Source of the DNA: Patescibacteria group bacterium
GTDB taxonomy: Bacteria > Patescibacteriota > Microgenomatia > Levybacterales > UBA12049
DNA: 64,000 bases
Direction of reading: 5' to 3'
Assembly (NCBI GenBank): GCA_035457005.1
Contig: DATICB010000001.1
Coordinates: 3,246-67,245, forward strand
Shown here in pieces: positions 11,355 through 39,077 of this stretch. Position 1 is the stretch's first letter, and the number at the start of each line of letters is the position of its first letter. Under the pieces are notes generated by a model that was not told the DNA's origin, searched no databases, and worked only from the letters and a program-made list of their open reading frames with translations. A program made the position numbers and the translations under genes.

Positions 11355-11963
11355 ATGAAAATTTCAGCAATTGCAATTATTTCTAAAAATCGGGGATTGG
11401 GATTTGAGAATCATCTTCTTTTCCATATTCCTGGTGAGCTCCCACGATTAAAAGCAATTACCATGGGCCATCCAGTTGTTATGGGAAGAAAAACGCATGA
11501 GTCAATTGGGAGAATTTTGCCAGGAAGACTCAACATTGTTATTACCAGAAAAGGTGGAGAGGATGTGCCGGGTTTGCTTATTTTTGTTGACAGTTTGGAA
11601 AAAGCATTGGAGATTGCAAAAGAGAGTGAGGGAAAAAAAGTCAAAAAGTCTTCTTCGAGCAAGCAAAGCGAGTCGAGAAGTGAGTTGTCGACAAGCTCGA
11701 ACAAGAATAAGATTGCCGCGTCGGTCGCCAAAGGCGAACCTCCTCGCAATGACAACGAAGGCGAAATCTTTATCTTAGGTGGGGGACAAATTTTTGCAGA
11801 AAGCCTGTCAATAACAGATCGTTTGTATTTGACAATTGTTGATACAGAAGTACCAGCAGATACTTTTTTTCCAGACTACGAAAAAGAATTTACAAAAGTT
11901 ATTACTGAGGAGAAGAAAACAGATTGGGAATACCCCTACACATTTCTTACTTTAGAAAAATAA
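11355..11963 (+). CDS. folA: dihydrofolate reductase with a ~45-aa insertion built from R2 plus an R1 half
   Basis: ISAIAIISKNRGLG..LPRLKAITMGHPVVMGRKTHESIG, IFILGGGQIF. Confidence 0.85.
   Translation: MKISAIAIISKNRGLGFENHLLFHIPGELPRLKAITMGHPVVMGRKTHESIGRILPGRLNIVITRKGGEDVPGLLIFVDSLEKALEIAKESEGKKVKKSSSSKQSESRSELSTSSNKNKIAASVAKGEPPRNDNEGEIFILGGGQIFAESLSITDRLYLTIVDTEVPADTFFPDYEKEFTKVITEEKKTDWEYPYTFLTLEK
11651..11686. repeat. R2 element (CTTCTTCGAGCAAGC.AAGCGAGTCGAGAAG) in frame in folA
   Basis: Also present in recR at 38804-38836; translated SSSSKQSESRSE. Confidence 0.6.
11705..11752. repeat. R1 3' half-element in frame in folA
   Basis: AATAAGATTGCCGCGTCG...CCTCGCAATGAC, translated NKNKIAASVAKGEPPRND. 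Confidence 0.65.
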
Positions 11964-11967
11964 ACAC

Positions 11968-12981
11968 CTACTGTCTTTTCGACCGCCTGAGTCTTTCACT
12001 CATTGTTTTGGGCATGTTGCCAATGTATTCCTGCAAAAGTCCAAGATGCAACTTGCCTGCAGCTAAAATGTGTGCCTTCTGAAACGCTTTCTGCTGATTT
12101 GTTTGTGTCCAGTTCTGTGAAGTTAGCTCATCTGGGTTTTGTGTCATGTATTGGATAACTTCCATTTCTTGAAATGTCTCGACTTTTATGCCTCCCGCTG
12201 TCTTGGCAAGTGGCGGGTAGGTTTTGGCTGCCTCCAATTGATACTGCGCAAATCCTTCTGGCGTTGCTAAATAGGCAAGTTTTTCTGGATCGAGGAGCAC
12301 CACCATTTGTCGCACAGAGTATGCATCTCTGGATGTGTCACGCCTACTACTGTTGTGAATATAGGTTGCCATTTCAATAATGTAGGGAACAGACGGCCAA
12401 TTATTTTCTTGTGCCATTCGTGCAAGTGATGCAAATCGCTCTTGTACTGTTTCCATTTCCCGTCCTGCATGGACTCTCTCTGGTTTGCCAACTCTTTGAA
12501 AAACAATTTGGCCATCTTGAATGGTTGGTATTGCATTGACCTCGTCAAGGCCAACAATTGGATTGACTCTCCACCAATGGTGTTCTTTAAATCTTTCACG
12601 AATTGGGTGAGACCGTCTTTCGTTTCGTTGTATCTGTGCGGCAGAGAGCGCCTTGGACTTTGCATCCAGAAAAGGACTACCAGTATGCTGCTCCTCACCA
12701 ACCAATCGTCGAAGAGAAAGAGCGGGAAAATTTCTGCGAAAATCTTCTTCGCGAATACCATTATCACTAGCAATACCTGCAACATGGAGTCCAATCCCCA
12801 GTGAAAATTTTGTTTTCTTGGGCATATGGCGGACTGATTCTTGGATGAGTTCTTGCCTGGTTGCATCAAGAAGAGTGGTAAAGAGGATCGGGGCTTTTTC
12901 TGTGCGTGGTGAAATTGCAGTTTCGCTGCTTGGTAAGTGAGGATACGGTGGAGGGGTTGTCCCTGCTTCGATCCTTTTCAT
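11968..12981 (-). CDS. hypothetical protein (337 aa) at the distal end of the purine-salvage block
   Basis: Long ORF with no recognised motif. Confidence 0.5.
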   Translation of the reverse strand: MKRIEAGTTPPPYPHLPSSETAISPRTEKAPILFTTLLDATRQELIQESVRHMPKKTKFSLGIGLHVAGIASDNGIREEDFRRNFPALSLRRLVGEEQHTGSPFLDAKSKALSAAQIQRNERRSHPIRERFKEHHWWRVNPIVGLDEVNAIPTIQDGQIVFQRVGKPERVHAGREMETVQERFASLARMAQENNWPSVPYIIEMATYIHNSSRRDTSRDAYSVRQMVVLLDPEKLAYLATPEGFAQYQLEAAKTYPPLAKTAGGIKVETFQEMEVIQYMTQNPDELTSQNWTQTNQQKAFQKAHILAAGKLHLGLLQEYIGNMPKTMSERLRRSKRQ

Positions 12982-13116
12982 ATCACGTCAAAAAAATAGG
13001 TGTCATATATTTGTGCTGACGAAAAGGAGAGAAAATAGCGGAGAATTTTTGGAGTTCCATGACTTATTTTATTTGAAAGAGAGAATTCCTGTCAATAAGA
13101 TAATTTACTATGGGTA

Positions 13117-14175
13117 TTATTTTGATTGTTGGCTGAGTGATGTAGCAAGTTTAATGACCGCTGGAATAAGATAGCGCTCAGCAATTTTGCCACCAGACAA
13201 CACTTCTTCTGCATTTGTTGGATTGGGACTTGCGACATTATTTCGCCTGAGACTTTCTTTTGTTGGAAATTCAGGACGAGAAATAATATTGGTTGCAGCA
13301 GTAAGCCCAATCCAGGGAATTTTTCTGTCAAAACCGTTACTATCTGTAGATGGATCATTGTAATGCTGCATGACCATTGCCTCTGTGGCAAAGGACATGC
13401 CAAAAAGTTGCACCATGTCGGGATTTTGTTGAGAAAGCGCTGGATACATGCCATTTGCAATATCGCCTCTGCCCTCGTAGAGCGGCGCATTGATTGCCAT
13501 CGTATAGATGCCAAGATGCAGATTGTTGGCGGGAATTGTGTCTTCGAGTAGTGCAAATAGGTGCGGATCTGCAGTGTCTGCTTTTCCGGGGAATCGTTGT
13601 CCAAGTCTATCATCATTTGGTCCAATCAGTGGATTGACGCCGTTTTGATTGACATAGTCAACATCCACCACAACATCGCCAACATGAACATTGCCATTAT
13701 CCAATGCGCCTGCTGCATTGGTTGTGACGAGCCAGTTAATTCCCAAGCCTTTGGCAACGCGAAGGGGAGCGGTGATCATCTTTAATTGTTGCGGAGAATA
13801 ATCGGTATCGTACATATGGGCCCTTCCGGTCATAATGCCAACTTCCTGACCACCAATATCGGCAATCACCAACTCTTTTCCATGTCCTGGCGCTGTCGGG
13901 ACAAACCAATGGGGGATTTGCTCCATGGGGATTTTGTCGTGAATGGTTATGTCTGGTGAATCTGCAAGTCCTGCTAACCCTGACCCACACACAATCCAAC
14001 CATCGAGTGTTTTTCTGCCAATTTTTTCTTGCAAACGATTTTCCAGAAACGTTTTGCTTTCGACCAATTGCTCATAATATCTCTGTTGCTCGGCTCTGCC
14101 AATTTCCTGCTGAAGCCCTACGTTAAAACGCTCGCGTGCAATAGTTTTGGCTCTTGATGTTTTTCTTTCGCTCAT
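13117..14175 (-). CDS. purine nucleoside phosphorylase / MTAP family protein
   Basis: GSGLAGL, GRAHMYD, LVTTNAAGAL are PNP/MTAP family-1 motifs. Confidence 0.7.
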   Translation of the reverse strand: MSERKTSRAKTIARERFNVGLQQEIGRAEQQRYYEQLVESKTFLENRLQEKIGRKTLDGWIVCGSGLAGLADSPDITIHDKIPMEQIPHWFVPTAPGHGKELVIADIGGQEVGIMTGRAHMYDTDYSPQQLKMITAPLRVAKGLGINWLVTTNAAGALDNGNVHVGDVVVDVDYVNQNGVNPLIGPNDDRLGQRFPGKADTADPHLFALLEDTIPANNLHLGIYTMAINAPLYEGRGDIANGMYPALSQQNPDMVQLFGMSFATEAMVMQHYNDPSTDSNGFDRKIPWIGLTAATNIISRPEFPTKESLRRNNVASPNPTNAEEVLSGGKIAERYLIPAVIKLATSLSQQSK

Positions 14176-14723
14176 ATAGTTGACCAGTCTACTATACCAA
14201 GTTGTCTTAATTTTTTCTTTGCTTCTTGTAATCCGAATTTTTCTATAAATGCTGCTTTTGTTTCTCTTAATTCATATGGCAAGATGATCCACCCATTTAA
14301 TTGTTCCTCATAAAAATGAGGAACATATTTTGTCCGTGGTTTTATGTACAAAGAGGCAGTGATAAACGACATTACGTTTGATTCTTTGAGATACGCAGTT
14401 GCACGGAGAAATGTTGCGCCGGAATCAGCTAATTCGTCAACTAAAAGGATTTTTTCATTGGTAAATTTCTTAGAAAGCAGGTGCGTAATTACCGGAGTTT
14501 TTTGTTGGTCAAAATTTTTATATGACTCAATAGTAATAAAGGAAATTCTTGCGTCAAGGATGTCTGAAAGAATTCGACTTAAAACAATACCTCCTCTGGC
14601 AATCGCAATGATTTCATCTATTCTTCCATATTCATCGCGAATTTTTTTTGCAAGAGAAATTGCATCTTTTTCATATCTTTGCCAAGAAATAGGAATAAAT
14701 TTTTTTGTAGCTTTTTTATTCAT
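14172..14723 (-). CDS. purine phosphoribosyltransferase
   Basis: ILLVDELADSGATF is a PRPP-binding motif. Confidence 0.7.
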   Translation of the reverse strand: MNKKATKKFIPISWQRYEKDAISLAKKIRDEYGRIDEIIAIARGGIVLSRILSDILDARISFITIESYKNFDQQKTPVITHLLSKKFTNEKILLVDELADSGATFLRATAYLKESNVMSFITASLYIKPRTKYVPHFYEEQLNGWIILPYELRETKAAFIEKFGLQEAKKKLRQLGIVDWSTI

Positions 14724-14976
14724 TAGCTATTTGTAAATGAAAATTCCCAAAAGGGATACGTACTAATCCGTCCCAGGGCGTTATTACTGCTCCATCAATA
14801 TCTGCCGATCCATGTGTTTGACGAACCGATGGGTTGTTGGTAATTGTTTTGCTGTGTTTTCCTCGCCGAAGCGTTACAGTCGTTGGGCGATGCGCATCGT
14901 GAAGCACATGTTCCCTTGTTGCAGGAATACCGTTGATTGTTGTACCAGGAGGAATATCGTGAATTCTCGTTGTCAT
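14716..14976 (-). CDS. hypothetical protein (86 aa from the internal Met, MTTRIHD)
   Basis: Fills the gap exactly between the LOG stop and the PRT start, with short overlaps, so it is probably part of the operon. Confidence 0.4.
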   Translation of the reverse strand: MTTRIHDIPPGTTINGIPATREHVLHDAHRPTTVTLRRGKHSKTITNNPSVRQTHGSADIDGAVITPWDGLVRIPFGNFHLQIANE

Positions 14977-15842
14977 CTCCTTCGTGTATGTTGGCCAATT
15001 GTCTTGTCCCAATATTCATATCCTTGCCGAATTATCCCTACTATCTCGGGGACTGTTGCTGCATAGCGCACTTGCAGATCATCAAACCGTATCAATGGGT
15101 CTACTCCTTGTTTAATACGTTCTTCATACATCATTTTGTGAAAATCTTCAATGGTTTTTTTCCAAAAAGGATGAACAATAATAGGATATTCTGGTTCTAG
15201 ATGATGTGATTGCTTTAGCTGCATAACCATAATCAATTCAAGTGCTGTGCCAATACCACCAGGACCAAAGTATGCTGCATGGGACATATCAATCATTTCC
15301 TGAATTCTTGTTGTGTATTCAGTGTGCTCGTGGTAACTGTCGAGGTTAGGATCTGCTGCTTCTTCGTAGGGAAGCCTAATGCTAACGCCCAAAGTTCTTG
15401 AATTAATATTGCCTGGTAGCGCATCCTCTCGAGCACGTCGTGCGCCAAGTGCTGCGGCACCCATAATACCCGGTCCTGCGCCATTGATAATATCAACACC
15501 AAGTTCTTTTACTAATTCATGAGTGAGTTCTGTGGTAAATTGGTATTCCGGTGAATTCGGATTAATGCGTGCGCTTCCTGAAACCATGACTCGATAGTGT
15601 GTTGCAAGCTCATGGTGAAGAAGCTCTCTCCGTGCGCTGTTATATTCTCTACCTTTTTGCAGCACGCGTTCTCTTGCGCGCCTCCCATCGCCACGATGGA
15701 GACGTATAATACCCTGTGCTGCTTGGCTTTGTAGCTGGTCTAGCACCTCTGTTCTTGTTGATGTATACTTTTTTGCTTCATCAATTTCTGTCTCTGGAAT
15801 TCGGTGAGATCTGTGGAAAAGACCCTCTCTTATTTTTGTCAT
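14973..15842 (-). CDS. LOG family protein (nucleotide 5'-monophosphate nucleosidase / Rossmann TIGR00730-like)
   Basis: GAGPGIMGA and GPGGIGTALEL motifs. Confidence 0.7.
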   Translation of the reverse strand: MTKIREGLFHRSHRIPETEIDEAKKYTSTRTEVLDQLQSQAAQGIIRLHRGDGRRARERVLQKGREYNSARRELLHHELATHYRVMVSGSARINPNSPEYQFTTELTHELVKELGVDIINGAGPGIMGAAALGARRAREDALPGNINSRTLGVSIRLPYEEAADPNLDSYHEHTEYTTRIQEMIDMSHAAYFGPGGIGTALELIMVMQLKQSHHLEPEYPIIVHPFWKKTIEDFHKMMYEERIKQGVDPLIRFDDLQVRYAATVPEIVGIIRQGYEYWDKTIGQHTRRR

Positions 15843-15943
15843 GGTGTGTATTGTAAAAAAATAGAGGTAAGGTGTCTGTTCTGAGCAGAACGAGAAGATA
15901 GTTCTGAAAAGAACGCAGGAATTGTTCTACAGAGAACACATTC

Positions 15944-16585
15944 TTAAAGAAGCACGATCCTCTTAGGAGATATGATAATTTTTTTCTCCTTTTGCAGTAT
16001 ATGTAAAACTTCAGTCACCCGGGGTCGAGTTGCGCCAACAATTTGAGCAATCGTTTCGTGAGAAAAAAGCAGGATATTATTTTCTGAAAGCCGGGAAAGA
16101 AATTGCAGGATGTGATATGTCCTGTCGTAAAGATTATTGCCAAGACGAAGGCCTTGCAAGTGATTAAATTCCCTTAGTTTGGCAAGAATAATTTCATACA
16201 TATTCTTCCAAAGCTGTGGATTGTCTTGCAGTAGGGAGAGCATATCTTTTTTGTAAAGTATCAGCATATGCGAAAGATGCAATGTTTCAATAGTTGCGCT
16301 TGCTGGTTTTCTATCCAAATCCATAATACCCAGATAATTATCTTTTCTTTCATATGCCAGGAAAATTTCGTTACCTTTTTCCGTAGTCTTATATATTTTA
16401 ACTGTTCCATTGAGAATAAGGAAAATCTTGTCATTTATTTCATCTTCATGGATCAGATGATACCCTGCATGAAAGGCTTGTATTCTTGCTTTTTGAGCTA
16501 ATTTTTGCAGTTTTTCCTTATCGAGGCCGCGAAAAAGAAAGGAGGATTGAAGAATTGCGAGAATATCCTGATTGTCACTCTCCAT
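15944..16585 (-). CDS. Crp/Fnr family transcriptional regulator
   Basis: cNMP-binding-like N-terminus and a C-terminal HTH (TIAQIVGATRPRVTEVL). Confidence 0.7.
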   Translation of the reverse strand: MESDNQDILAILQSSFLFRGLDKEKLQKLAQKARIQAFHAGYHLIHEDEINDKIFLILNGTVKIYKTTEKGNEIFLAYERKDNYLGIMDLDRKPASATIETLHLSHMLILYKKDMLSLLQDNPQLWKNMYEIILAKLREFNHLQGLRLGNNLYDRTYHILQFLSRLSENNILLFSHETIAQIVGATRPRVTEVLHILQKEKKIIISPKRIVLL

Positions 16586-16681
16586 AATAAATTATATAAC
16601 CTGTAGTATAAGTTGTCAAGCGCTATTTATTCTGTTCCGCAGGGAACTGAAAAAGGTTTGTCAATAAAGTAAGCTGTTGCT

Positions 16682-16981
16682 GTGTCAAACATTACAGAAA
16701 CACCTGAATTTAGGGAAAACAGACAATTCGTCAGAGATATGATCCCCATTTTTAGAGGGAGTATGGAACGAGGAGAAATGACGTGGGAAGAAGTTGTCGC
16801 TGCTACAAAAGGACTCCGCAGGCAATTTCAATTTAATCGGAATGGCCAGGCAGAACGAGTCAGGCCAGTAGAGCCGATGGTTCCTTCAATTGAAACGATC
16901 CGTGCGTACGAAGCAGCAAGGAACAGACAAGAGTGGGATGAAGTACATCGACAAATAGCAAGACGACGAAGACATTGGTAA
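16682..16981 (+). CDS. hypothetical protein
   Basis: GTG start, 99 aa, Arg-rich C-terminus. Confidence 0.35.
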   Translation: MSNITETPEFRENRQFVRDMIPIFRGSMERGEMTWEEVVAATKGLRRQFQFNRNGQAERVRPVEPMVPSIETIRAYEAARNRQEWDEVHRQIARRRRHW

Positions 16982-17041
16982 TTTTTACCCATCTCGCCTC
17001 TTTACAATTTTCACAGTTTCAGTACAATACCTACTGGTATT

Positions 17042-19390
17042 ATGTATCAACGATTTGGAGAGAGTGCACTGCCGAGAGTGATTAATCATATTGTTTCTCC
17101 TGTTAAAATTCCACCAACGCTCCTTTTTGCGACACGAAATCAAAATAAACTGCGTGAATACCAAAGAATATTAAAAAAGCCTGTGGAAGGAATTGATTTA
17201 AAGGTGCCAGAAATTCAGGACAGCGATCCGCTCAAAGTTCTTTCTGAAAAAGCAAAAACAGCCTATGCAATTCATGGAGGACCAATTTTTGTTGAGGACA
17301 CAAGTTTTACGCTTCCAGAGTTGGACAACATGATTGGGCCGTATGCAGACAACGAAACAAGCTCGCGTGCCAAGCTTGCAGCAATTTGTCGCATGTTTGA
17401 CACAACGCATAAAAGGGAAGCGATTGTTGTAGTTGGTATTGCGCTTTTTGACGGACGCGAAGTGTATATGTGGGTAGGAAAAGTGTCTGGCACTGTTGCT
17501 GCCTCGCCGTTAGGCAGTAATGGATTTGGATTTGATGCAATTTTTATTCCAAAAGGAGCGAAAAAAACATTTGCCCAAATGACGGATAGTGAAAAAGATA
17601 GTTATAGTCCTCGAAAAAGTGCGCTTTTGGATTTAGTAAAAAACCCTCCAAGCTTAGCTGAGCCTATTTTCCAACTGCAAGAGCCGTCAGTATTTCAAAC
17701 AAATAGAATCAGAAAAGAAGAAATAGCAAAAAGAAACGCATTACAATTTGCCTTTAGCATGGAATCTTTGGAAAAAGCCCGTTCAGCAGGTTTAGCTCGA
17801 GCAACAAAACCAAATGTCAAATTGGAAGTAAGTACTTATGCGCCATTTACTGAGGTATTGCACTACAATGGCGCAGTAAGGGAATATACTGTTGATCCAA
17901 AATCTGCATCAATGGGACTTGTTCTTCTCACAGAAGTAGATTTAAAAACAGTGCCTGATAAAGGGAAAAAACGAGCTATAAGACTTGCAGTCAGTGACAC
18001 TGGCAATCCTCTTTTGTATCAAATGGGGCCAAAGGCGATGGAAATTGTCTTGGCTGCACGAGCAGCTGAGTATTTAGATATGCACTCAGCAGATATGCAC
18101 CAACACGTACGCGATTTGTTGTCTGGAAAAATACAGCATGTATCGCGAAGCAGTACCAGATCTTCTGTTTTGGAAGAAGTGTTGGGAATGTTTGTCAAAA
18201 CAGATGAGAAAGGCGTGCATAAAATTATTCATGGAGCAAGTACAGCAATTGCAACAAAAGAATTAGGATACAAAAGATTATCGAGCGGAGGTATTTTAAG
18301 CAGAAAACAAGCTGCAAAAGGACTTTTGATGAGAGGACCAGATGGCGTGGTTTCGAGTTTGTATTCATACGGCGGTATGCCGCCAACAACAGGGAGTCGC
18401 GACAGTATTGTGACAGCAGCAATGTCTTTTATGCGGGCATGGATTCCAAGAAACGGCGTGTTTGCAGGAAATTTTGCAAGACAACTCCAGCTTTTTAAAC
18501 AAGCAAAAAAAGCAATTATCGGCTTTGGTTTGCCAAAAGACATTGAAAAGCAGGTAATTTCCCAAATCGGGATTGCAGTTGGCTGTGACAATCCTGTTAG
18601 TATCGCCAGAGATGTGAAGAAATTTGCTCTGCTTGGCGGACATGCTGCAAGAATTTATACAACCAATCCAGATATACGAATTATTGAAACAGCAAAAGCA
18701 ATTCGAAAAGCAACGGGCCCGAATTTTCTTTTGTGTGTTGGGCCGGTGACTGATTACGAGCAGGCTGTTCGTCTAAAAAAAGAAGCACAGGTACACATGT
18801 TTTTAGTAGGTCATGGTGGAGGAGAAAATTGTACGTCCCTTACTGCAGGCGGTGCAGCAAATTCAATAGAACTTCTGTATCAACTCTACCTAGATCCACT
18901 GTTTAATGACTGCATTATTGGTTTGGAAGGTGGGACTGGGACAACCATTGGTGCGCTGCTACCACTTTTGGATGTTATTTCTTTGAATAAACGTGGTATC
19001 GGCGGATTCGAAAGCACACAGGGATTGTATGCATTAAAAGCGCGCAACGGCAAAGAAGAGCCAGTTATTCCGTATCATGGATCAGCCAGTGCTGCAACGC
19101 AGTTGATTGAAGCATACATGAGCCCAGAGATTGCAAAAAAAAGATTGGGGCCAGATGGTATTGTGCGGGCAGTTGAGGGAAAAGTAAATTACATTGTGCT
19201 CAATGACGCAGTGAGGAGTAATGTAAGCGCAATCCGGGAAAATAGAGCCATTGCAGGACTAGCGTTAGCTGATCAGCAGTCTTTGTCTATATATCAACTG
19301 CGCGAAAGAGTGAAAAAGTTAGGACATAATCATGTGGGTATTTCTGCTGCATCAAGTGTTGTCGCTAACGAACACAGGAGTGGGGTATAA
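17042..19390 (+). CDS. fusion protein: N-terminal non-canonical purine NTP pyrophosphatase (RdgB/Ham1 ITPase) and C-terminal IMPDH/GMP-reductase-like TIM-barrel domain
   Basis: ATRNQNKLREY, FVEDTSF and GFGFDAIFIPKGAKKTFAQM..SPRKSA are Ham1 motifs. VGPVTDYEQAVRL...VGHGGGENCTSLTAGG...GLEGGTGTTIGALL resembles the IMPDH catalytic-Cys loop and phosphate-binding region. Confidence 0.6.
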   Translation: MYQRFGESALPRVINHIVSPVKIPPTLLFATRNQNKLREYQRILKKPVEGIDLKVPEIQDSDPLKVLSEKAKTAYAIHGGPIFVEDTSFTLPELDNMIGPYADNETSSRAKLAAICRMFDTTHKREAIVVVGIALFDGREVYMWVGKVSGTVAASPLGSNGFGFDAIFIPKGAKKTFAQMTDSEKDSYSPRKSALLDLVKNPPSLAEPIFQLQEPSVFQTNRIRKEEIAKRNALQFAFSMESLEKARSAGLARATKPNVKLEVSTYAPFTEVLHYNGAVREYTVDPKSASMGLVLLTEVDLKTVPDKGKKRAIRLAVSDTGNPLLYQMGPKAMEIVLAARAAEYLDMHSADMHQHVRDLLSGKIQHVSRSSTRSSVLEEVLGMFVKTDEKGVHKIIHGASTAIATKELGYKRLSSGGILSRKQAAKGLLMRGPDGVVSSLYSYGGMPPTTGSRDSIVTAAMSFMRAWIPRNGVFAGNFARQLQLFKQAKKAIIGFGLPKDIEKQVISQIGIAVGCDNPVSIARDVKKFALLGGHAARIYTTNPDIRIIETAKAIRKATGPNFLLCVGPVTDYEQAVRLKKEAQVHMFLVGHGGGENCTSLTAGGAANSIELLYQLYLDPLFNDCIIGLEGGTGTTIGALLPLLDVISLNKRGIGGFESTQGLYALKARNGKEEPVIPYHGSASAATQLIEAYMSPEIAKKRLGPDGIVRAVEGKVNYIVLNDAVRSNVSAIRENRAIAGLALADQQSLSIYQLRERVKKLGHNHVGISAASSVVANEHRSGV

Positions 19391-19399
19391 AGTTGTTGA

Positions 19400-19426
19400 T
19401 GTCGTCCTGAGCAAAGCGAAAGGATC
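19400..19426. repeat. R3 hairpin-unit repeat (GTCGTCCTGAGCAAAGCGAAAGGATC)
   Basis: Intergenic, upstream of glyA. Confidence 0.55.
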
Positions 19427-23965: not shown

Positions 23966-24047
23966 AAATTAACCTAATTATCTAATTGACCTAATTAACC
24001 TAAATATTTTTAGAAATTAGAAATTAGAAATTAGAAATTTTCAGGTT
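23966..24047. repeat. AT-rich intergenic element: (A)ACCTAATT x3 followed by TTAGAAA x4, ending TTTCAGG
   Basis: A near-identical architecture recurs at 41056-41179 upstream of nadE. Confidence 0.6.
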
Positions 24048-28868: not shown

Positions 28869-28873
28869 AAATT

Positions 28874-29020: not shown

Positions 29021-29093
29021 GTCACGGTTGGATAGCTCTTTGAGCATTCAACGTGACCCTGTTAGATGCGAAGCTATCTAACAGGGGAGGTGA
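29021..29093 (+). promoter_or_regulatory. conserved bipartite 5' leader (hairpin A, hairpin B, GGGGAGGTG SD), copy 1
   Basis: A is GTCACG-GTTGGATAG..CATTCAA-CGTGAC. B is CTGTTAGAT-GCGAAGC-TATCTAACAG. Then GGGGAGGTGAAAAAATATG. Confidence 0.55.
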
Positions 29094-29099
29094 AAAAAT

Positions 29100-29423
29100 A
29101 TGAATCCAATTATTTGTACAATTTGTCAAAAAACAAATCATTTACCGGAAAAACAAGTTATTGTTATGGCAAATTTTGCACAGAAGTATCAAGCAGAAAG
29201 AGCGTTATTTGATATTCAAAAATCACACATTGCTATTGTCTGGCAGAGAATTTTTGTCCGGTCAGATTTTATAACACTTATTTTGTCATTGCATGGCATA
29301 AAAGATATTGTTCATCTGCAAAGTCTTTACATTGAAAGTATGTGTCAAAATAATAATGCATTAACAATTGATGTTGTTTCGCAAAAAGTACATCAAGAAA
29401 AATTATTGTCTGCTTTGAGCTAG
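29100..29423 (+). CDS. hypothetical protein (107 aa)
   Basis: ORF with a strong SD. Confidence 0.45.
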   Translation: MNPIICTICQKTNHLPEKQVIVMANFAQKYQAERALFDIQKSHIAIVWQRIFVRSDFITLILSLHGIKDIVHLQSLYIESMCQNNNALTIDVVSQKVHQEKLLSALS

Positions 29424-30852: not shown

Positions 30853-30877
30853 TTGTAAAATTTGATACGATTACATT

Positions 30878-32590: not shown

Positions 32591-33303
32591 GAAAGAAATG
32601 GGAGAGAATACCCAAAGAATTTTACCCAAAACACTGCATAGACTACTAAAAAAGCAAAAGCACCAAAAATAAGAATCAGCGGAGAAAATCCTTTCCCTTT
32701 TACTTTTGCAGCTGCAACAGGACTTCCGCCATTACCTATTTTTATTGTTTCTGTTTCATGAGGAACAATATGCGGCATGCTCATTGTTGCACTCATAGAA
32801 TCCATAGGAGAAGCATTTGTTGGCGTTGGAGTTGTAGGTGTTGCTGTTTGCGCATCATCTGTTGTTGGCGTCATAGGTGATGGAGGAGTCGGCTCAGAAG
32901 CAGGTATTGGATTACCAGGGAGTGTTATGGGCGTGTCCATAGAGGGACTTGTGGGAGGTGTAGATGGCGGCGTTGGCATTACTGGTGTTACGGGGTTGTC
33001 TGCCGGCATTTCTGGTGCAGATGGCATTGTTGGACTTTGCATAGGGTCTGCCGGTGTTGGGGAAGGCATAGTAGGCGATGGTACTGGCGTCGGTTCTGCT
33101 GGTGAAATAGGCGGTGTCTGAGAAGCAGGGTCCTGCGTTGGTGTTGTCGGTGATGGTGAGGTAGGTGTTTGAGAAGGTGTTGCGGAAAGATTTGTCCCCA
33201 TAACACGGTCGTAGACTTCTTGTAATTTGGGGTCTAGTGGTTGATTGCTGTTTTGTTTGGGATCCATGTATACATAATCTCGAATCTTATACTCGTTTGT
33301 CAA
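32584..33303 (-). CDS. Pro/Thr/Ser-rich protein with a C-terminal TM anchor
   Basis: Low-complexity PT-rich ORF with a C-terminal hydrophobic helix. Confidence 0.5.
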   Translation of the reverse strand: MTNEYKIRDYVYMDPKQNSNQPLDPKLQEVYDRVMGTNLSATPSQTPTSPSPTTPTQDPASQTPPISPAEPTPVPSPTMPSPTPADPMQSPTMPSAPEMPADNPVTPVMPTPPSTPPTSPSMDTPITLPGNPIPASEPTPPSPMTPTTDDAQTATPTTPTPTNASPMDSMSATMSMPHIVPHETETIKIGNGGSPVAAAKVKGKGFSPLILIFGAFAFLVVYAVFWVKFFGYSLPFLSQ

Positions 33304-33368
33304 GTTTCAACTTGTTTACCTTTTAATCCAGAGCGCATAAGACTTGGGCTATTTGCTATAATTGCATT

Positions 33369-34286
33369 ATGCACGTTATTATTACCCACGCATCTCCTGA
33401 CTGGGACGCAATTGGTTCTGTTTGGATTTTAAAGCGATTTTTGCCAGGATGGGAGAATGCAAAAGTGGAATTTGTCCCGGCAGGTAATCGGAGCCCACGC
33501 GTTTTACGAAAAGAAAAAGAAGCAGATACACAAGTCGTCGTAGAATCTGATGACACAAAAATAATTCACGTCGATACTGGGCTTACTCCTTTAGATCATC
33601 ATCAAATTTATGATACCAATGTCTGTTCAACAAGTAGATGTTGGGACTATGTTGCCCGCGAAAATCCCAATCTTCATGCAACAACATCGGACACAAAAAG
33701 AGACGATAAAATTGTTGCGATGGAGCGAATCGTTAGCTACATTGTTGCGCTGGATCATTTTCAGGAAATTTTTTGGCCAGACGCTGGATCTGACATTCAC
33801 GAGTTTAGTCTCTATGGCATTTTAGAGGGAATGAAGGGACTTCATCCTGACGATGATGACTATTTTGTGAGTTGGGGAATGGATATTTTGGATGCAATGC
33901 TCAAACGATTTGAGAGCAGAGTTTGGGCAGAAAAAGAAATTGCAAAAGGGAAAGAATTTAGTACGAAGTGGGGAAAGGCAATTGCGATTGAGACAATCAA
34001 TGATAGTGTGATTAAGCTTGCGCAAAAAATGGGATATGTTGTGGTTGTCAGACGTGATCCGCGAAAAGGATATGTGCGAATTAAAGCAGTTCCATTTAAA
34101 GAAGGGGTGACTCCAAATGTTAATTTAAGCCTTGTGCATAATCAGCTCGAAAAAATGGATCCAGAGGCAACGTGGTTTCTTCATGTCTCCAATAAAATGC
34201 TTCTTAATGGCACGCCAAAAAACCCAAAAATGGTACCAACAAAACTTTCTTTAGAGCAGATTGTTTCGGTTTTGGAAAAGATATAA
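33369..34286 (+). CDS. DHH family phosphoesterase (NrnA-like)
   Basis: ITHASPDWDAIGS and LTPLDHHQ motifs. Confidence 0.65.
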   Translation: MHVIITHASPDWDAIGSVWILKRFLPGWENAKVEFVPAGNRSPRVLRKEKEADTQVVVESDDTKIIHVDTGLTPLDHHQIYDTNVCSTSRCWDYVARENPNLHATTSDTKRDDKIVAMERIVSYIVALDHFQEIFWPDAGSDIHEFSLYGILEGMKGLHPDDDDYFVSWGMDILDAMLKRFESRVWAEKEIAKGKEFSTKWGKAIAIETINDSVIKLAQKMGYVVVVRRDPRKGYVRIKAVPFKEGVTPNVNLSLVHNQLEKMDPEATWFLHVSNKMLLNGTPKNPKMVPTKLSLEQIVSVLEKI

Positions 34287-34288
34287 GT

Positions 34289-34363
34289 GTCATCGCGAGT
34301 TTGCCTGCTGGCAACGTGGCGATCTTTAAAAGATTGCTTCGTCACTACGTTCCTCGCAATGAC
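34289..34363. repeat. R1 element, intergenic copy filling the gap between DHH and HIT
   Basis: GTCATCGCGAG...GATTGCTTCGTCACTACGTTCCTCGCAATGAC. Confidence 0.7.
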
Positions 34364-34370
34364 AAAATCT

Positions 34371-34694
34371 ATGGATAGCTGTATTTTCTGCAAAATTGCG
34401 AGTCATATTGAACCCAAAAGCTTTACTTACGAAGACGAAGACATTATGGTTTTTCCAGACACGCATCCTGTTAAGCCTGTTCATCTTCTTATTGTTCCTA
34501 AAAAGCACTATAAAGATTTCATAGAGCTTAGTGACGCTGTTTTGTGGAATAAGATTCGGGAAGTTGCCCAGAAACTTGTTGGTCAGTTTGATCTAGCAGA
34601 TAAAGGCTTTCGCATCTCAATTAATGGCGGTGGGGCACAAAAAATTGACCATTTGCATGTTCACCTCATGGGACCAATGGGAAAGATGGTATAA
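34371..34694 (+). CDS. HIT family protein
   Basis: HLHVHLMG histidine triad. The start was taken at MDSC, downstream of the repeat. Confidence 0.75.
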   Translation: MDSCIFCKIASHIEPKSFTYEDEDIMVFPDTHPVKPVHLLIVPKKHYKDFIELSDAVLWNKIREVAQKLVGQFDLADKGFRISINGGGAQKIDHLHVHLMGPMGKMV

Positions 34695-34742
34695 GGAAAA
34701 GTGTTGTGGAATTTGTTTTACATAGCTTTTTTAGCGAGACAG

Positions 34743-34770
34743 GATCCTTCGTTTCACTCAGGATGACATG
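34743..34770. repeat. R3 hairpin-unit repeat, reverse orientation
   Basis: CAGGATCCTTCGTTTCACTCAGGATGAC. Confidence 0.55.
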
Positions 34771-34794
34771 AATTTGTTTATAATTATACAAAAT

Positions 34795-34826
34795 CATGTC
34801 ACTTTTCCACATTTTTGTGATATAAT
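34795..34826 (+). promoter_or_regulatory. extended -10 promoter (TGaTATAAT)
   Basis: TGATATAAT at 34818-34826, upstream of the rpsU leader. Confidence 0.35.
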
Positions 34827-34848
34827 TAACCACGCTACATAACAAAGG

Positions 34849-34925
34849 GCCACAGTTAGATAGGCTGAGGCCATCTAGCGTGGTTCCATTGGATGCTCCA
34901 AGGAGCTATGCAATAGGAGGAGGTG
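34849..34925 (+). promoter_or_regulatory. conserved bipartite 5' leader, copy 2 (upstream of rpsU)
   Basis: A is GCCAC-AGTTAGATAG..CATCTAGC-GTGG. B-like is TTGGATGC..AGCTATGCAATAGG. Then AGGAGGAGGTG. Confidence 0.5.
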
Positions 34926-34937
34926 TTTATTTAATTT

Positions 34938-35138
34938 ATGGTAATTGTCGTAAAACAACCAGGTGATTCGGATGATGCAGTCATTCGAAAATTTACAAAA
35001 AAAGTAATGGATGCAGGTATCGTTCAGCAAGCAAAGCGTTTGCAATTTTACCTAAAGCCTTCAGCCGCACGTGCACAAAAAAAGCAAGATAATAGAAAAG
35101 CACGACTCCTGAAAAAGTCCATCAAAGCAACAATATAA
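34938..35138 (+). CDS. rpsU: 30S ribosomal protein S21
   Basis: 66 aa; RKFTKKV..AGIV..KR..FY.KPS..R..K S21 pattern. Confidence 0.75.
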   Translation: MVIVVKQPGDSDDAVIRKFTKKVMDAGIVQQAKRLQFYLKPSAARAQKKQDNRKARLLKKSIKATI

Positions 35139-35524
35139 TGAATGATGTAAGCGTTTTGTTATTTGTCGAAAGCAGATACAAAGTTAACCGCCGTCGCATA
35201 CGAAGAGCTGTTGAAAAAGTGTTGTATGATCAGCATGTTGCAGGCCCCGTAGAGGTAAGTATTGCGATTATTGGCGACCGCAAAATGCGCGAATTATCCA
35301 AAAAATACAAAGGCGAGGATAAAACGCGAAACATTCTGAGTTTTTCTTTGGCAGAGGGGAGTCCAACAGTATTGCCAACAGATAAACTCCGCCTTGGCGA
35401 TATTGTTATTTCGTATCCATATCTTATTAAAGAAGCAGCGCAATTTGATGAATTGGTCGACGATCGCATGGACATGCTTGTTAGCCATGGTATGTTGCAT
35501 CTTTTGGGCGTTCACCACGAATAG
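35138..35524 (+). CDS. ybeY: endoribonuclease YbeY
   Basis: HGMLHLLGVHHE metal-binding motif. Confidence 0.8.
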   Translation: MNDVSVLLFVESRYKVNRRRIRRAVEKVLYDQHVAGPVEVSIAIIGDRKMRELSKKYKGEDKTRNILSFSLAEGSPTVLPTDKLRLGDIVISYPYLIKEAAQFDELVDDRMDMLVSHGMLHLLGVHHE

Positions 35525-35584
35525 AAAAGACAGAGTTTGTTCCATTTCCAATTGTGTGCTTTTGTAGTATTCTAGGAAAGCTTT

Positions 35585-37072
35585 ATGGTCTTCTATAGAA
35601 AATATCGATCACAAACAATCGCAGAGCTCGACAGCCCCAAATTACGCGAAACTCTCTATGCTGTTTTATCTCAGAAAGAGATCCCTCACGCATTTCTTTT
35701 TACCGGACCAAAAGGTTTGGGCAAGACATCAACCGCTCGCATTATTGCGAAAGTGCTTAATTGTACCGCGACAAAACGCGACGGCATTGAGCCGTGTAAT
35801 ACATGCGACCAGTGTGTGTCGATTACCAATGGGAATAACATTGACGTGTTGGAAATTGATGGTGCATCCAATCGTGGCATTGATGAAATACGCGATTTAC
35901 GGGAAAAAGTTAATTTAGCACCGTCGAGTGCAAAAAAGAAAGTGTACATTATTGACGAAGTTCACATGCTCACAACCGAGGCATTTAATGCGCTGTTAAA
36001 AACAATTGAAGAGCCACCAAGTCATGTTGTTTTTATTTTCGCCACAACAGAGCCGCAAAAAGTGCCAGCAACTATTATTTCTCGCTGTTTTCATGTACGT
36101 TTGGCAAAAGCAACGAAAGAAGAGCTTGTTCATGCGCTCAACCGAATTGTAAAAGGTGAAAAATTGAGTATTGAGCCAGGCGTTTTGGACGCAATTGCGG
36201 AAATGGGTGATGGTGGATATCGTGATGCAACAAAGATTTTGGAAGAATTGGTCGCACTTTCTCAAGGCAAAAAAATAACACAAGAATTATTTGAATCTCT
36301 ATTTAAAACAGCACATATAACATCGTTTGTTCAAAAATTTCTGCAGCATGTTGCAAAAAAAAATGCGAAAGAAGCATTGGCTGTTTTGCAGGCTTTATCG
36401 GACGAAGGGACTGATGTTAAATTATTTTTATATCAAGTGTTGGTTGCGTTACATGAGGAATTTTTGCAGTTGGCAAGTAAGGCTGATTCAGATTCATTCT
36501 TTTCACTGACCGATTTGCAGCTCTTGCTGCCTCTTTTGGAAGATGCGTATCAAGAAACAAAATATGCCGTTATTGCAAGCTTGCCATTAGAATTGGTAGT
36601 TGTGCAGTATTGCTCATCGTCCGTTGTTCCTGGAGACCAAGCGACTCCAGAATCTCAAGAAAAATCTTTAAGCCAGGATGATAATAGTAAAAAGTCAGGT
36701 TTGACTATGCAGGACATGCTTAAAAAAGAGCAAATAATAAAGGTAAATCAGGTGCTGCATCCTGTGAAGCCTGAAGAAAAAAAGAAAGCTGAGAGCACTC
36801 ATGTCCAGGAAAATTTACCAAAAGACGTAAAAGACGCAAGTGTTCTTATGGAAAATCTTATTTATAAAGTAAAACCATACAATCATTCTGTTGCGGGAGT
36901 CTTGCGAGGATGTGCTATTGCATCTAGGACTGATGAATCAATTGTTTTTGCAACCGCATACGCATTTCATAAAGAAAAATTGGAAGAGCAAAAAATTAAA
37001 GAAATTCTCCAGCAAGTTGTTCGCGAGGTAACTGGTAAAAATTTGAAGGTAATGGTAGAATTGAAAAAATAG
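35585..37072 (+). CDS. dnaX: DNA polymerase III subunit gamma/tau
   Basis: FLFTGPKGLGKTSTARIIAK, CNTCDQC Zn module, IIDEVHML. Confidence 0.85.
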   Translation: MVFYRKYRSQTIAELDSPKLRETLYAVLSQKEIPHAFLFTGPKGLGKTSTARIIAKVLNCTATKRDGIEPCNTCDQCVSITNGNNIDVLEIDGASNRGIDEIRDLREKVNLAPSSAKKKVYIIDEVHMLTTEAFNALLKTIEEPPSHVVFIFATTEPQKVPATIISRCFHVRLAKATKEELVHALNRIVKGEKLSIEPGVLDAIAEMGDGGYRDATKILEELVALSQGKKITQELFESLFKTAHITSFVQKFLQHVAKKNAKEALAVLQALSDEGTDVKLFLYQVLVALHEEFLQLASKADSDSFFSLTDLQLLLPLLEDAYQETKYAVIASLPLELVVVQYCSSSVVPGDQATPESQEKSLSQDDNSKKSGLTMQDMLKKEQIIKVNQVLHPVKPEEKKKAESTHVQENLPKDVKDASVLMENLIYKVKPYNHSVAGVLRGCAIASRTDESIVFATAYAFHKEKLEEQKIKEILQQVVREVTGKNLKVMVELKK

Positions 37073-37089
37073 CAATGCATTTAGTGATT

Positions 37090-37161
37090 GCTACAGTTAG
37101 ATAGTCCTTTGGACATCTAGCGTAGCCCCGTTAGATGCAAAGCTATCTAACGGGGGAGGTG
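37090..37161 (+). promoter_or_regulatory. conserved bipartite 5' leader, copy 3 (upstream of ybaB)
   Basis: A is GCTAC-AGTTAGATAG..CATCTAGC-GTAGC. B is CCGTTAGAT-GCAAAGC-TATCTAACGG. Then GGGGGAGGTGAA. Confidence 0.55.
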
Positions 37162-37172
37162 AATTACTGATT

Positions 37173-37457
37173 ATGTTTAATCCATTTCAACAATTAGGAG
37201 ATTTAAAGAAAATGCGCGACCAGGCAATGCAAATTCAAAAAGCGCTGCAAGCCGAGCAAATTACTGTAGAAAAATCAGGTGTTACTGTTGTTATGACAGG
37301 AGATCAGAAAGTTGTTTCTATTTCGAGTAACGGAAGATCGGACAATGACATTAAAGATTGTCTAAATGAAGCAATTAAAAAATCTCAAGAAATAGCAGCA
37401 AAAAAATTAGCACAAATGGGTGGCGGTTTGGGTGGGCTTATGGGAGGAGGCAATTAA
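37173..37457 (+). CDS. ybaB: nucleoid-associated protein YbaB/EbfC
   Basis: Length and pattern (central beta region, Gly-rich tail) fit YbaB; position between dnaX and recR. Confidence 0.7.
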   Translation: MFNPFQQLGDLKKMRDQAMQIQKALQAEQITVEKSGVTVVMTGDQKVVSISSNGRSDNDIKDCLNEAIKKSQEIAAKKLAQMGGGLGGLMGGGN

Positions 37458-37463
37458 GCGAAA

Positions 37464-38399
37464 ATGAAGATTTTTTCAGGAAGTGCAAGTCGAGCGTTGA
37501 CAGAGGAAGTAGTGAAAGTCATGAATATTCCACTGTCTTTAATTGATGTGCATGTTTTCCCAGATGGAGAAAGGCGAATCCGCATTCACGACAAAGTGGT
37601 TGGGAAATCAACAGCTGTTATTCAGACAGCATCAACTCCAGTAGACACCAACTACATGGAGCTTTTTTTTATTGTTGATGCACTCAAGCGGTCTGGTGCA
37701 GAATTTGTGACTGCAGTCATTCCATATTTTGGGTATCAGAGACAAGATCACGTTTTTCGCGATGGAGAGGCTGTTTCTTTGGAAGTCGTTATTCACATTT
37801 TAGAAAGTTTAAAAGTAGATAGAATGGTGAGTTTGGACATGCATTCTAGTCGAATTCCTGATTTATTTAGTATTCCTGTTGGGCATTTATCTGCATTACC
37901 TCTTTTTGCCGAAGAAATTAGAAAACATAAATGGAATAATACCGACACTGTTTTAGTATCTCCAGACACAGGAGGCATTGGCAGAATTAAAAAATTATCA
38001 ACACTTCTAGAGGACATGCCGTATGCTGTTTTGGAAAAAGTTAGAGATTTATCATCTGGTGCAATCTCTATTGCAGATATCGAAGAAGGGTCCTTGCGTG
38101 GGAAAAAACGTGCAATTTTGGTTGATGACATGATTTCCTCTGGTGGAACGATTATTATGGGCGCGTCTTTGTTGGCAGCACAGGGAATAGAGGAGATTTA
38201 CGTTTTTGCGACACATCCTGTTTTTTCACATGACGCGCCGGACAGGCTGCAAAATTCTGCAATTAAAAAAGTGTATGTAACCGACACAGTTGCTGTTGCG
38301 CAAGATAAGCAATTTTCTAAATTAGAAGTATTGTCTGTAGGTACGTTGATTGCAAACGAACTCAAACATCCAACCGCATCTAACGATCCATTGTTGTAA
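37464..38399 (+). CDS. prs: ribose-phosphate pyrophosphokinase
   Basis: FSGSAS, FPDGE, VSPDTGGIGR, ILVDDMISSGGT. Confidence 0.85.
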   Translation: MKIFSGSASRALTEEVVKVMNIPLSLIDVHVFPDGERRIRIHDKVVGKSTAVIQTASTPVDTNYMELFFIVDALKRSGAEFVTAVIPYFGYQRQDHVFRDGEAVSLEVVIHILESLKVDRMVSLDMHSSRIPDLFSIPVGHLSALPLFAEEIRKHKWNNTDTVLVSPDTGGIGRIKKLSTLLEDMPYAVLEKVRDLSSGAISIADIEEGSLRGKKRAILVDDMISSGGTIIMGASLLAAQGIEEIYVFATHPVFSHDAPDRLQNSAIKKVYVTDTVAVAQDKQFSKLEVLSVGTLIANELKHPTASNDPLL

Positions 38400-38405
38400 T
38401 AGCCT

Positions 38406-39077
38406 ATGAAAATTCCACGAGCAGTACAAAATCTTATTGAGTCGTTTGAAAAACTGCCTGGCGTTGGGCCAAAGTCTGCTCAGCGGCTTACGTTTTATTT
38501 ACTGCATGTCCCACAAGGCGAATTGGATACCTTTGCAAAAAGCCTAACAGAGCTAAAAACAGGCACCAAATTGTGCTCTATTTGCATGTCAATTGACGAA
38601 ACAGACCCATGCTCAATTTGCTCGGATGGCCTTCGGGATCACGCAACAATTTGTGTTGTCGAGCAGCCTTTGGATGTCTTGGCTTTGGAAAAATCAGGAA
38701 CCTATAAAGGAATCTATCACGTGCTACACGGGAGAATTGATCCACTCAATAATTTGGGGCCAGATGAGATTTATGTGGGGAAGTTATTCGACAGGATAAA
38801 AAATTCTTCTTCGAGCAAGCCTAGCGAATCGAGAAGTCTTGAGGAAAGTTCTCGACTTCGCTCGAACGAGAACACTCATATTAAAGAAATAATTCTAGCT
38901 ACCAATCCTACCATGGAAGGCGAGGCAACAGCAATGTATATTACCAAACAATTAAAAGCATTAGGTTTTGCTGGTGCTATAACAAGAATTGGAAGAGGTT
39001 TGCCGGTTGGTGCGGATTTGGAATATGCAGACGAAATTACTTTGCAGCGCGCTATGGAAGGCAGAAGCGAAGTATAA
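38406..39077 (+). CDS. recR: recombination protein RecR with an in-frame R2-derived insertion
   Basis: LPGVGPKSAQRL, C-x2-C...C-x2-C zinc finger, Toprim region. Confidence 0.85.
   Translation: MKIPRAVQNLIESFEKLPGVGPKSAQRLTFYLLHVPQGELDTFAKSLTELKTGTKLCSICMSIDETDPCSICSDGLRDHATICVVEQPLDVLALEKSGTYKGIYHVLHGRIDPLNNLGPDEIYVGKLFDRIKNSSSSKPSESRSLEESSRLRSNENTHIKEIILATNPTMEGEATAMYITKQLKALGFAGAITRIGRGLPVGADLEYADEITLQRAMEGRSEV
38804..38875. repeat. R2 element plus palindromic extension, in frame in recR
   Basis: TTCTTCTTCGAGCAAGCCTAGCGAATCGAGAAG..., translated NSSSSKPSESRSLEESSRLRS. Confidence 0.6.

Follow-up and report, generated by a model that had tools for sequence, protein, structure and literature searches.

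We identified a family of short palindromic DNA repeats, here called R2, two copies of which lie in frame within folA and recR in a 64-kb stretch of a Patescibacteria genome (positions 3,246 to 67,245 of contig DATICB010000001.1; the whole stretch is referred to as the window). R2 is a dispersed DNA repeat and not the outcome of convergent serine-rich coding. It is probably a palindromic repeat family of the Patescibacteria (CPR, the candidate phyla radiation), comparable to repetitive extragenic palindromic (REP) sequences and REP doublets forming hairpins (REPIN) or to MITEs (miniature transposable elements with inverted repeats), which is tolerated in frame within genes. The inserts in the folA and recR genes of the window are most likely translated into disordered loops for which no function is required.

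An initial annotation of this DNA had described a 31-nt imperfect inverted repeat, present in folA and recR in the same reading frame, as a second mobile-type repeat family beside another family, R1. Scanning the window with the corresponding degenerate 31-mer (CTTCTTCGAGCAAGCMWAGCGARTCGAGAAG) returned two exact matches, at 11650-11680 (+) and 38806-38836 (+), which are the sites first described, with the exact positions corrected by 1-6 nt. None of 100 dinucleotide-preserving shuffles matched the 31-mer, even with three mismatches permitted, and the expected number was 0. The two matches share 28 of 31 bases and are read in a common frame, as SSSSKQSESRS in folA and SSSSKPSESRS in recR. The 31-mer is indeed an imperfect palindrome on its own (CTTCT-TCGA...TCGA-GAAG); however, it is not the whole unit. 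It forms only the left arm of a larger two-arm hairpin of 59-69 nt, whose shorter, inverted right arm lies 3' in both genes, and the further palindromic extension noticed earlier in recR is this right arm and not a separate sequence. The window has two instances of the bracket TTCGAGC...GCTCGAA, where 0 would be expected by chance; the terminal inverted repeats of the window copies are TCTTCTTCGAGC / GCTCGAAC(A/G)AGA. The copies and their host genes are as follows.

11649..11707, + strand: R2 copy 1, complete two-arm hairpin of 59 nt in folA, read as SSSSKQSESRSELSTSSNKN
11650-11680 (left) and ~11684-11707 (right), + strand: the two arms of R2 copy 1
38804..38872, + strand: R2 copy 2, complete two-arm hairpin of 69 nt in recR, read as SSSSKPSESRSLEESSRLRSNEN
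11355..11963 (open reading frame from 11313), + strand: folA (dihydrofolate reductase, DHFR), host of copy 1; Pfam DHFR_1 in two stretches, E=2.5e-43
38406..39077, + strand: recR, host of copy 2; Pfam RecR_HhH, RecR_ZnF, Toprim_4 and RecR_C

The DNA fold predicted for copy 1 consists of an outer stem, a mini-hairpin branch and an inner stem (z=-2.8), and the same arrangement of outer stem, small side hairpin and inner stem is predicted for the family consensus and for both window copies. Neither fuzzy matching nor an nhmmer profile of the left arm revealed a third R2 copy in the 64 kb. A generic inverted-repeat finder did not detect R1 or R2, because their stems are bulged. Both window copies carry TCTT / AGAA ends and GAGCAAGC, variants that are rare elsewhere (3 and ~5 of 95 metagenome left arms), and so the folA and recR copies belong to one lineage- or genome-specific R2 subfamily.

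At least 120 metagenome contigs carry the R2 motif. The contigs were scanned with a pattern fitted to the three R2 copies then known and the copies were aligned afterwards; all family-wide counts given here (left arms, stems, context in open reading frames, ORFs) are among the metagenome matches listed. The consensus of the element is (T)TATTCTTCGAGCGAGCG-N-AGCGAGTCGAGAAG / variable loop / GTTCTCGAC-(AA or longer)-GCTCGAACAATA(A), in which the left arm comprises 31 nt (TATTCTTCGAGCGAGCGNAGCGAGTCGAGAAG), the right arm is shorter and inverted (GTTCTCGAC..GCTCGAACAATA), and the loop ranges from 0 to more than 60 nt and at times holds other small hairpins, giving full elements of ~46-100 nt. The 13-nt terminal inverted repeats, TTATTCTTCGAGC / GCTCGAACAATAA, contain one fixed mismatch. 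The ends, (T)TATTCTTCGAGC / GCTCGAACAATA(A), are conserved, and conservation breaks off sharply there, the flanking DNA being unrelated between copies. At most positions the stems are paired in 46-58 of the 58 complete copies, with two fixed mismatches, and this conservation of mismatches points to the copying of whole units, as in REP, REPIN and bacterial interspersed mosaic elements (BIMEs). A compensatory change from A:T to C:G at the element ends is confined to three copies, the two of the window and a related one in recR (contig L004); the terminal TA thus co-varies as TC...GA and belongs to the inverted repeat rather than to a target duplication. Among 120 unique left arms there were 57 left-right hairpins, 28 right-left doublets, in which a right arm abuts upstream, and 35 singlets.

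The core of the R2 left arm, GC-GNA-GC, fits the rule for GCGNAGC mini-hairpin DNA (95 left arms): at positions left free by the search pattern, G was found in 74 of 95 arms and A in 87 of 95, and N was near-uniform (A35, T25, C19, G16). The two window copies, with AAA and CTA, fall outside this rule. A hairpin of the form GC-GNA-GC, with the loop restricted to GNA and N free, is extraordinarily stable as DNA (PMC13037366), and we infer that the motif has a role in R2. A 13-nt core, GCGAGCGAAGCGA, is common to the R1 family and the R2 consensus. Further small palindromes accompany the element. Between TTCTCGAC and GCTCGAA the right arm has a bulge, in which there is often a GC-rich mini-hairpin of a sequence that varies between copies (e.g. 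L010, L037, L048, L053, L054, L067, L086, L107, L113 and L114), and a single 24-nt hairpin of this kind is the sole difference between L113 and L118; these hairpins may be tiny palindromes nested in the arm, or else a third stem under selection for its structure. On six contigs (L042, L075, L102, L007, L095 and L105) R2 itself sits within another palindrome (...TTACGCA-ttt-[R2]-...TGCGTAAG...), so that, to judge from the sequences, several repeat families are nested one within another.

R2 copies occur in both orientations and are mostly intergenic. Left arms lie within ORFs in 16% (strict) to 32% (lax) of cases, compared with a long-ORF coverage of ~86% at the same loci (p ~3e-41). Those within ORFs are not read at random: 16 of 20 independent copies are in the frame YSSSERSESRS, the frame of the window copies, although the minimal element is open in five of its six frames, and the bias holds even against a null expectation of 1/3 (p <= 2.5e-5). 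The alternative frames read as strings rich in Leu, Phe and Cys. All in-ORF metagenome copies and both window copies are free of stop codons and have lengths divisible by three. The metagenome copies are hosted by housekeeping proteins with no relation to one another, whose Pfam matches span the insert, namely PriA, a dCTP-deaminase-like protein, TsaD, RecF, topoisomerase I (TopA), two M24 peptidases, GluRS, UvrD, ValRS, a DegT aminotransferase, RluD, the CCA-adding enzyme, PheT, mevalonate-diphosphate decarboxylase (MVD), a glycosyltransferase, a Mur-ligase/FolC-like protein and an asparagine synthase (AsnB). Depletion from ORFs together with carriage mostly in a single frame is what one would expect if selection removes a DNA repeat from genes except where it happens to do no harm. 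R2 is unlikely to be a transcription terminator, as no T-run follows the hairpin on either strand. Rfam holds no family for R2 or for the other repeats described here, a scan of viral contigs for R2 gave 0 matches, the 34-aa recR insert peptide had 0 matches among 1.8 billion representative sequences, and a 57-aa concatenated consensus peptide had no match at E<=10.

The recR gene of the window lies in a dnaX-ybaB-prs-recR cluster, and a contig from another sample (L003) supplies a nearly identical allele without the insert. The two sequences are 96.9% identical with 0 gaps over 3230 nt, then jump by 72 nt, and continue at 96.6% identity. The insert is also present, with the gene neighbours seen in the window, in an independent sample (P0001, 98% identical). 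These alleles show that R2 appears or disappears within the time over which strains diverge. In a more distant recR (L004, ~77% DNA identity) the same site is occupied by an R2 copy of the window subfamily, and this copy is closer to the folA copy of the window than to its recR copy. Other relatives of RecR have R1-like (VIARSETTKQS) or other repeat-derived peptides there. The insert amounts to 24 codons, close to the ~25 amino acids first estimated, and had been placed between the Toprim region and the C-terminus; Pfam, the structure 3vdp from the PDB and the AlphaFold2 model place it instead within the Toprim domain, where it follows a helix and precedes the strand after it. The homologs of RecR come from Patescibacteria and are typically 200-204 aa long. 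In the alignment to 3vdp, query residues 136-157 are left without a counterpart, chain residue 149 stands on both sides of the break and no host residues are lost, and AlphaFold2 models residues 136-156 as coil with a predicted local distance difference test score (pLDDT) below 50.

Flanking sequences across the R2 family show neither a direct repeat nor conservation. A TA or TTA/TAA target-site duplication was considered and rejected, as the terminal positions co-vary as part of the inverted repeat. The symmetric loss of TAA/TTA at the ends was likewise rejected as avoidance of stop codons, since in the frames that are used the ends of the consensus have no stop to begin with.

The insert in DHFR is composite, as the initial annotation had proposed, with half of an R1 copy directly 3' of R2. 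The ortholog alignments that it had called for show that both the DHFR and the RecR insert are additions, absent from the closest relatives. The DHFR of the window (202 aa, against a usual length of ~160 aa) is 100% identical to a protein from a Patescibacteria metagenome-assembled genome (MAG) at NCBI (P0121), and its closest other orthologs (P0122, P0123 and P0125, ~80% identity) have no insert. A further homolog (P0131) carries a consensus-type R2 (YSSSQRSESRSKKQFSTSSNN) in the same loop, and others carry R1-like or other repeat families there. The alignment to PDB 7rzo breaks at query residues 94-132, the chain being continuous at 98-99 with no host residues lost, and the AlphaFold2 model (mean pLDDT 86) is of low confidence only across the insert. 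R2 in folA replaces the left arm of R1 and abuts its AT-rich loop, directly 5' of the R1 right half (AAGATTGCC...CTCGCAATGAC), which was matched through the direct-repeat families D7 and D11 and full R1 copies in thyA and nadE. Similar chimaeras exist in the metagenomes: L057 joins an R2 left arm to an R1 right arm, and in L019, L066 and L078 R2 stands beside '...ATGAC' ends. The segments added to the two host genes, and the other copies of R1, are as follows.

38805..38876, + strand: 72 nt of recR present in the window and absent from the L003 allele; sole indel in 3.5 kb (BLAST, alignment)
11634..11753, + strand: whole DHFR insertion, ~39-42 aa relative to insert-free orthologs and solved structures, in the loop that joins a helix to the strand after it
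11708..11753 (approximate), + strand: R1 half copy (right arm) fused to R2, ...AAGATTGCC...CTCCTCGCAATGAC, read as KIAASVAKGEPPRND
9735-9811: R1 copy in thyA
40624-40673: R1 half copy in a nucleotidyltransferase gene
41480-41560: R1 copy in the NAD synthase gene

The R1 family (GTCATTGCGAGCGAAGCGAAGCAATC...CTCGCAATGAC) thus has four copies or half copies in the window, all in frame in housekeeping genes and read as SVIASEAKQS...PRND. Just 5' of the half copy in the nucleotidyltransferase gene, positions 40603-40611 (TATTCTTCG, read YSS) equal the left end of the R2 consensus; this may be an R2 remnant, making that insert composite too, and nine bases could also be due to chance. Across lineages, the insert loops of RecR and DHFR hold at least five kinds of repeat-derived peptide, examples of loop peptides being VIARSE(A/T)TKQS, VILNEVKDL...QNDN, HPGEATTSIGS, LPAGRQ, NTKYEILNT and YSSNEVRSSQP. 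The residues before the insert are EExRIKN in many DHFR homologs and RIKN in RecR.

We propose that R2 copies are gained and lost at the level of DNA, either by transposition in trans or by hairpin-mediated templated repair or slippage, with the two arms folding together into a bulged hairpin. Most of the copies that survive are intergenic. Persistence within a gene would require a length that is a multiple of three, the absence of stop codons, the hydrophilic Ser/Glu/Arg frame (YSSSERSESRS...) and a tolerant surface loop, and a loop that holds one element would attract or tolerate others. Such behaviour would account for composite inserts, as with R2 and half of R1 in DHFR, and for the different families found in the same loop in different lineages. 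The repeat family, its anatomy, the in-frame carriage with its bias to one frame, the depletion from ORFs, the presence/absence polymorphism and the position in loops are observed; translation of the inserts, their near-neutrality and the way copies spread are inferred, as is the view that loops holding one element are preferred or permissive sites for more.

Several observations weigh against this proposal. Among 118 ORFs located no more than 150 nt from intergenic copies, Pfam showed no transposase family that recurs. At the single filled/empty pair, window and L003, no target-site duplication is visible and there is at most a 2-nt TC microhomology; with no visible duplication and a junction that is not cleanly reconstructed, L003 could represent a (hairpin-mediated) deletion instead of the window an insertion. 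The RNA folding z-scores of the two window copies, -1.4 and -1.9, are unremarkable, and the density of R2 is low, with ~1 strong copy per 7-kb locus and 2 in the 64-kb window. The three most variable positions of the left arm are all third-codon positions of the preferred frame, which hints at a coding constraint and is confounded by the choice of search pattern. A scan of genome contigs with a left-arm pattern of the window subfamily yielded only two chance matches (a Bacteroidetes MAG and Caballeronia) that lacked the rest of the motif; because that pattern was subfamily-specific, the taxonomic range of R2 is drawn from metagenome contigs and from the organisms named as sources of related proteins.

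The best surviving alternative concerns the means of spread and would assign R2 and the R1-type families, with their GCGAGCGAAGCGA core, to the small free-standing GIY-YIG nucleases, which are common in these genomes, as targets or non-autonomous partners; we consider it unlikely. In this reading, an extruded hairpin or cruciform would be cut and repaired from another copy, spreading both repeat and nuclease gene, and in-frame copies would be a by-product. Two loci point this way, L111/L124 and L010, in each of which a 91-aa GIY-YIG ORF lies between two direct R2 left arms, followed by a right arm, and the two GIY-YIG proteins have clearly diverged. Their positions are as follows.

L111, 1187-1660: GIY-YIG gene between R2 arms
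L010, ~1990-2415, minus strand: GIY-YIG gene between R2 arms

On L126, a relative of the thyA-folA locus of the window, a GIY-YIG ORF has on either side a copy, in direct orientation, of the right arm belonging to a third palindromic family, and the GIY-YIG ORF of the window (1579-1821) stands between two direct copies of a 35-nt tRNA segment that can also form a hairpin. GIY-YIG is, moreover, the top recurrent Pfam family beside intergenic R2, with no transposase family recurring, and its ~2% adjacency is the value expected of a single-copy partner gene. Set against this, the arrangement is limited to two independent R2 loci and a single locus of another family, a large UvrC-like protein accounts for one of the three GIY-YIG matches in the screen, other small GIY-YIG ORFs adjoin tRNAs and not repeats, and the loci come from a set chosen for carrying R2, with nuclease specificity conjectural. 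A general association with GIY-YIG genes was rejected as a rule, as only 2 of ~110 independent R2 loci have one. As a lead only, the data suggest that small GIY-YIG genes ride on, or act on, hairpin-forming repeats. It is correspondingly doubtful, if conceivable, that R2, R1 and at least one further family form a superfamily built on the GCGNAGC mini-hairpin, propagated by small GIY-YIG nucleases of the Patescibacteria or serving as their landing pads.

The GIY-YIG loci have features of their own. The L126 gene lies between thyA and folA (1600-1995) in the third palindromic family (GTCATCTCGAACGAAGTGAGAGATCTC...CGAAATGAC), with its ATG inside the end of one arm and a second arm copy after its stop codon. 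The thyA-folA interval of the window has no GIY-YIG gene and contains two small minus-strand ORFs lacking a Pfam match (10484-10759 and 11030-11314). At 1517-1939 the window holds an apparently split tRNA gene, whose 5' part (acceptor, D arm and anticodon arm) occupies 1517-1562 and whose T arm and 3' acceptor occupy 1920-1939. Its interior contains the GIY-YIG ORF (Pfam PF01541) and a complete tRNA-Ile (1812-1886), and the copies of the 35-nt direct repeat, 97% identical, lie at 1528-1562 and 1885-1919. The block looks like a mobile GIY-YIG cassette integrated in a tRNA gene with partial duplication.

A second alternative is that the Ser/Glu/Arg-rich peptide has been exapted and is selected as a flexible linker or as a phosphorylation or interaction site, so that the inserts are functional. 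The strong bias to one frame and the third-codon variability noted above would agree with it, as would the recR insert retained across lineages ~77% identical in DNA and the comparison of the folA copy with the L004 recR copy, in which 4 of 7 differing codons are synonymous (counted by eye). Yet avoidance of hydrophobic or Cys-rich readings predicts the frame bias equally, the loops are empty in the closest relatives, including a 97%-identical strain without the insert, and in other lineages the same loop holds unrelated repeat peptides. Most copies are, furthermore, intergenic and in either orientation, the hosts are functionally unlike one another and the inserts are predicted to be disordered, and selection for the peptide is improbable in our judgement.

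It is very improbable that the elements within genes are intervening sequences that never reach the protein, the hairpin being excised from the mRNA or bypassed by the ribosome. Bypassing has precedents in the byp elements of Magnusiomyces mitochondria and in T4 gene 60. A stable hairpin is predicted in the transcript strand of R2, and unusual intervening sequences are known in rRNA and tRNA genes of Patescibacteria (PMC13011429). All copies found within genes are, however, stop-free and a multiple of three, with 16 of 20 in one frame, a constraint that would be pointless for a segment that never reaches the protein; nor is there an Rfam match, and R2 is far too small for a self-splicing intron. 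Convergent low-complexity serine-rich coding with no kinship between the copies, which the initial annotation had named as the outcome that would undo its proposal should the motif be confined to the two sites, is already refuted and has next to no probability left: the peptide is compositionally simple and peptide-level searches gave no significant match, but the identity of 28/31 is at the level of DNA and extends to both arms and the terminal inverted repeats, and the motif recurs in at least 120 metagenome contigs, where most copies lie outside genes and both strands carry them.

A palindromic repeat family tolerated in frame within genes has its closest counterpart in the Rickettsia palindromic elements (RPEs). 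RPEs are dispersed palindromic repeats located in frame in unrelated metabolic genes, at fold-compatible sites and with no known transposase (Ogata et al. 2000, 2002, as summarised in PMC10969869). R2 resembles them in being a dispersed, hairpin-forming palindromic repeat of a reduced genome, found in frame in many unrelated housekeeping genes, read as a peptide conserved within the family, located in surface loops compatible with the fold and having no identified transposase. It differs in size (46-100 nt compared with ~100-150 bp), in being built of REP-like arms that also occur as singlets and right-left doublets, in its mostly intergenic location, in its distribution across many divergent groundwater lineages as opposed to one genus, and in sharing its insertion loops with several other families. 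By this comparison R2 is an analogue of RPEs and not an RPE; the two are likened by behaviour, and kinship in sequence would not be expected.

The anatomy of R2 recalls the REP, REPIN and BIME sequences of Proteobacteria, with a 31-nt imperfect palindrome as its unit, inverted hairpin-forming doublets alongside singlets, and long and short variants that are always opposite in orientation. In BIMEs, likewise, the Y and Z REPs are variants in opposite orientation. REPs are by definition extragenic, whereas 16-32% of R2 copies lie in ORFs and both window copies lie in genes; no RAYT (REP-associated tyrosine transposase, a Y1 transposase) was among the recurrent families in the 118 ORFs screened next to R2. 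REP and REPIN sequences have a conserved GTAG or CGTC tetranucleotide at one end (PMC3733652), whereas R2 ends in TATTC... and ...GAGAAG and has no such tag. Like bacterial MITEs that have in-frame copies inside genes, such as ERIC, Correia and QMITE1 (PMC10969869), R2 is small, has 13-nt terminal inverted repeats and an AT-rich context at its ends, and occasionally forms translational fusions; unlike them, it has no demonstrable target-site duplication, its terminal TA co-varying as TC...GA. As for a parent element or transposase with R2 ends, of the kind expected for a MITE, no transposase family recurs among the 118 adjacent ORFs, and only the small GIY-YIG genes lie between arms, at two independent loci. 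The cores of the R2 left arm and of R1 match the GCGNAGC mini-hairpin, G and A being conserved and N free, but that motif is known at the priming sites of phages and plasmids and from experiments in vitro and not as the core of a dispersed genomic repeat (PMC13037366). The coding palindromes of Nematomorpha mitochondria (PMC6649704) are likewise inverted repeats in protein-coding sequence that are compatible with translation, but they are long, gene-internal repeats with both arms coding, while R2 is a dispersed family of short elements that is intergenic too. R2 behaves like RPEs and is closer in anatomy to REP, REPIN and BIME sequences.

The window contains other repeats as well. A 71-nt intergenic repeat, 80% identical between 29024-29094 and 37093-37163 (and also present at 1519-1589 of L003), contains a hairpin (CCCTGTTAGATGCGAAGCTATCTAACAGGGG) followed by GGAGGTGAA, lies directly 5' of the ORF starts at 29100 and 37173 (ybaB), has no Rfam match and may serve as a leader or in regulation. 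Two nearby ORFs, 58367-59869 and 60496-61029, have within them a 66-nt direct repeat (59573-59638 and 60724-60789, 89% identical), which is probably a segment common to paralogous genes. An AT-rich motif, CTAATT(G/A/C)ACCTAATTAACCTAA, recurs 3' of genes at 23982, 41054 and 41063.

With R2, a known kind of element, the palindromic repeat tolerated in frame within genes, gains a new family and is extended to a new phylum. A literature search found no account of in-frame palindromic repeats in CPR bacteria or Patescibacteria; its coverage was incomplete and a prior description is possible. In-frame selfish repeats in essential genes have so far been treated as a peculiarity of Rickettsia, and a 2024 review merely speculates on their existence beyond that genus (PMC10969869). 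In the Patescibacteria, which also have reduced genomes, we find the same phenomenon, with several families reusing surface loops of DHFR and RecR and with filled and empty strains that are ~97% identical. What goes beyond the Rickettsia case is the GNA mini-hairpin core in common with R1, the reuse of loops by several families and the possible link to GIY-YIG genes. If true, the partnership with GIY-YIG nucleases would be an analogue of the RAYT-REPIN system with a different class of enzyme, seeding disordered loops into essential proteins across the radiation. Repeats of the R2 type explain part of the odd length variation and of the 'hypothetical' low-complexity segments in CPR proteins, and annotators and structure predictors are warned that such segments are repeat-derived. 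The metagenomic diversity of the CPR offers many natural pairs of insertion and excision in which the movement of these elements, and the protein sites that tolerate them, can be studied.

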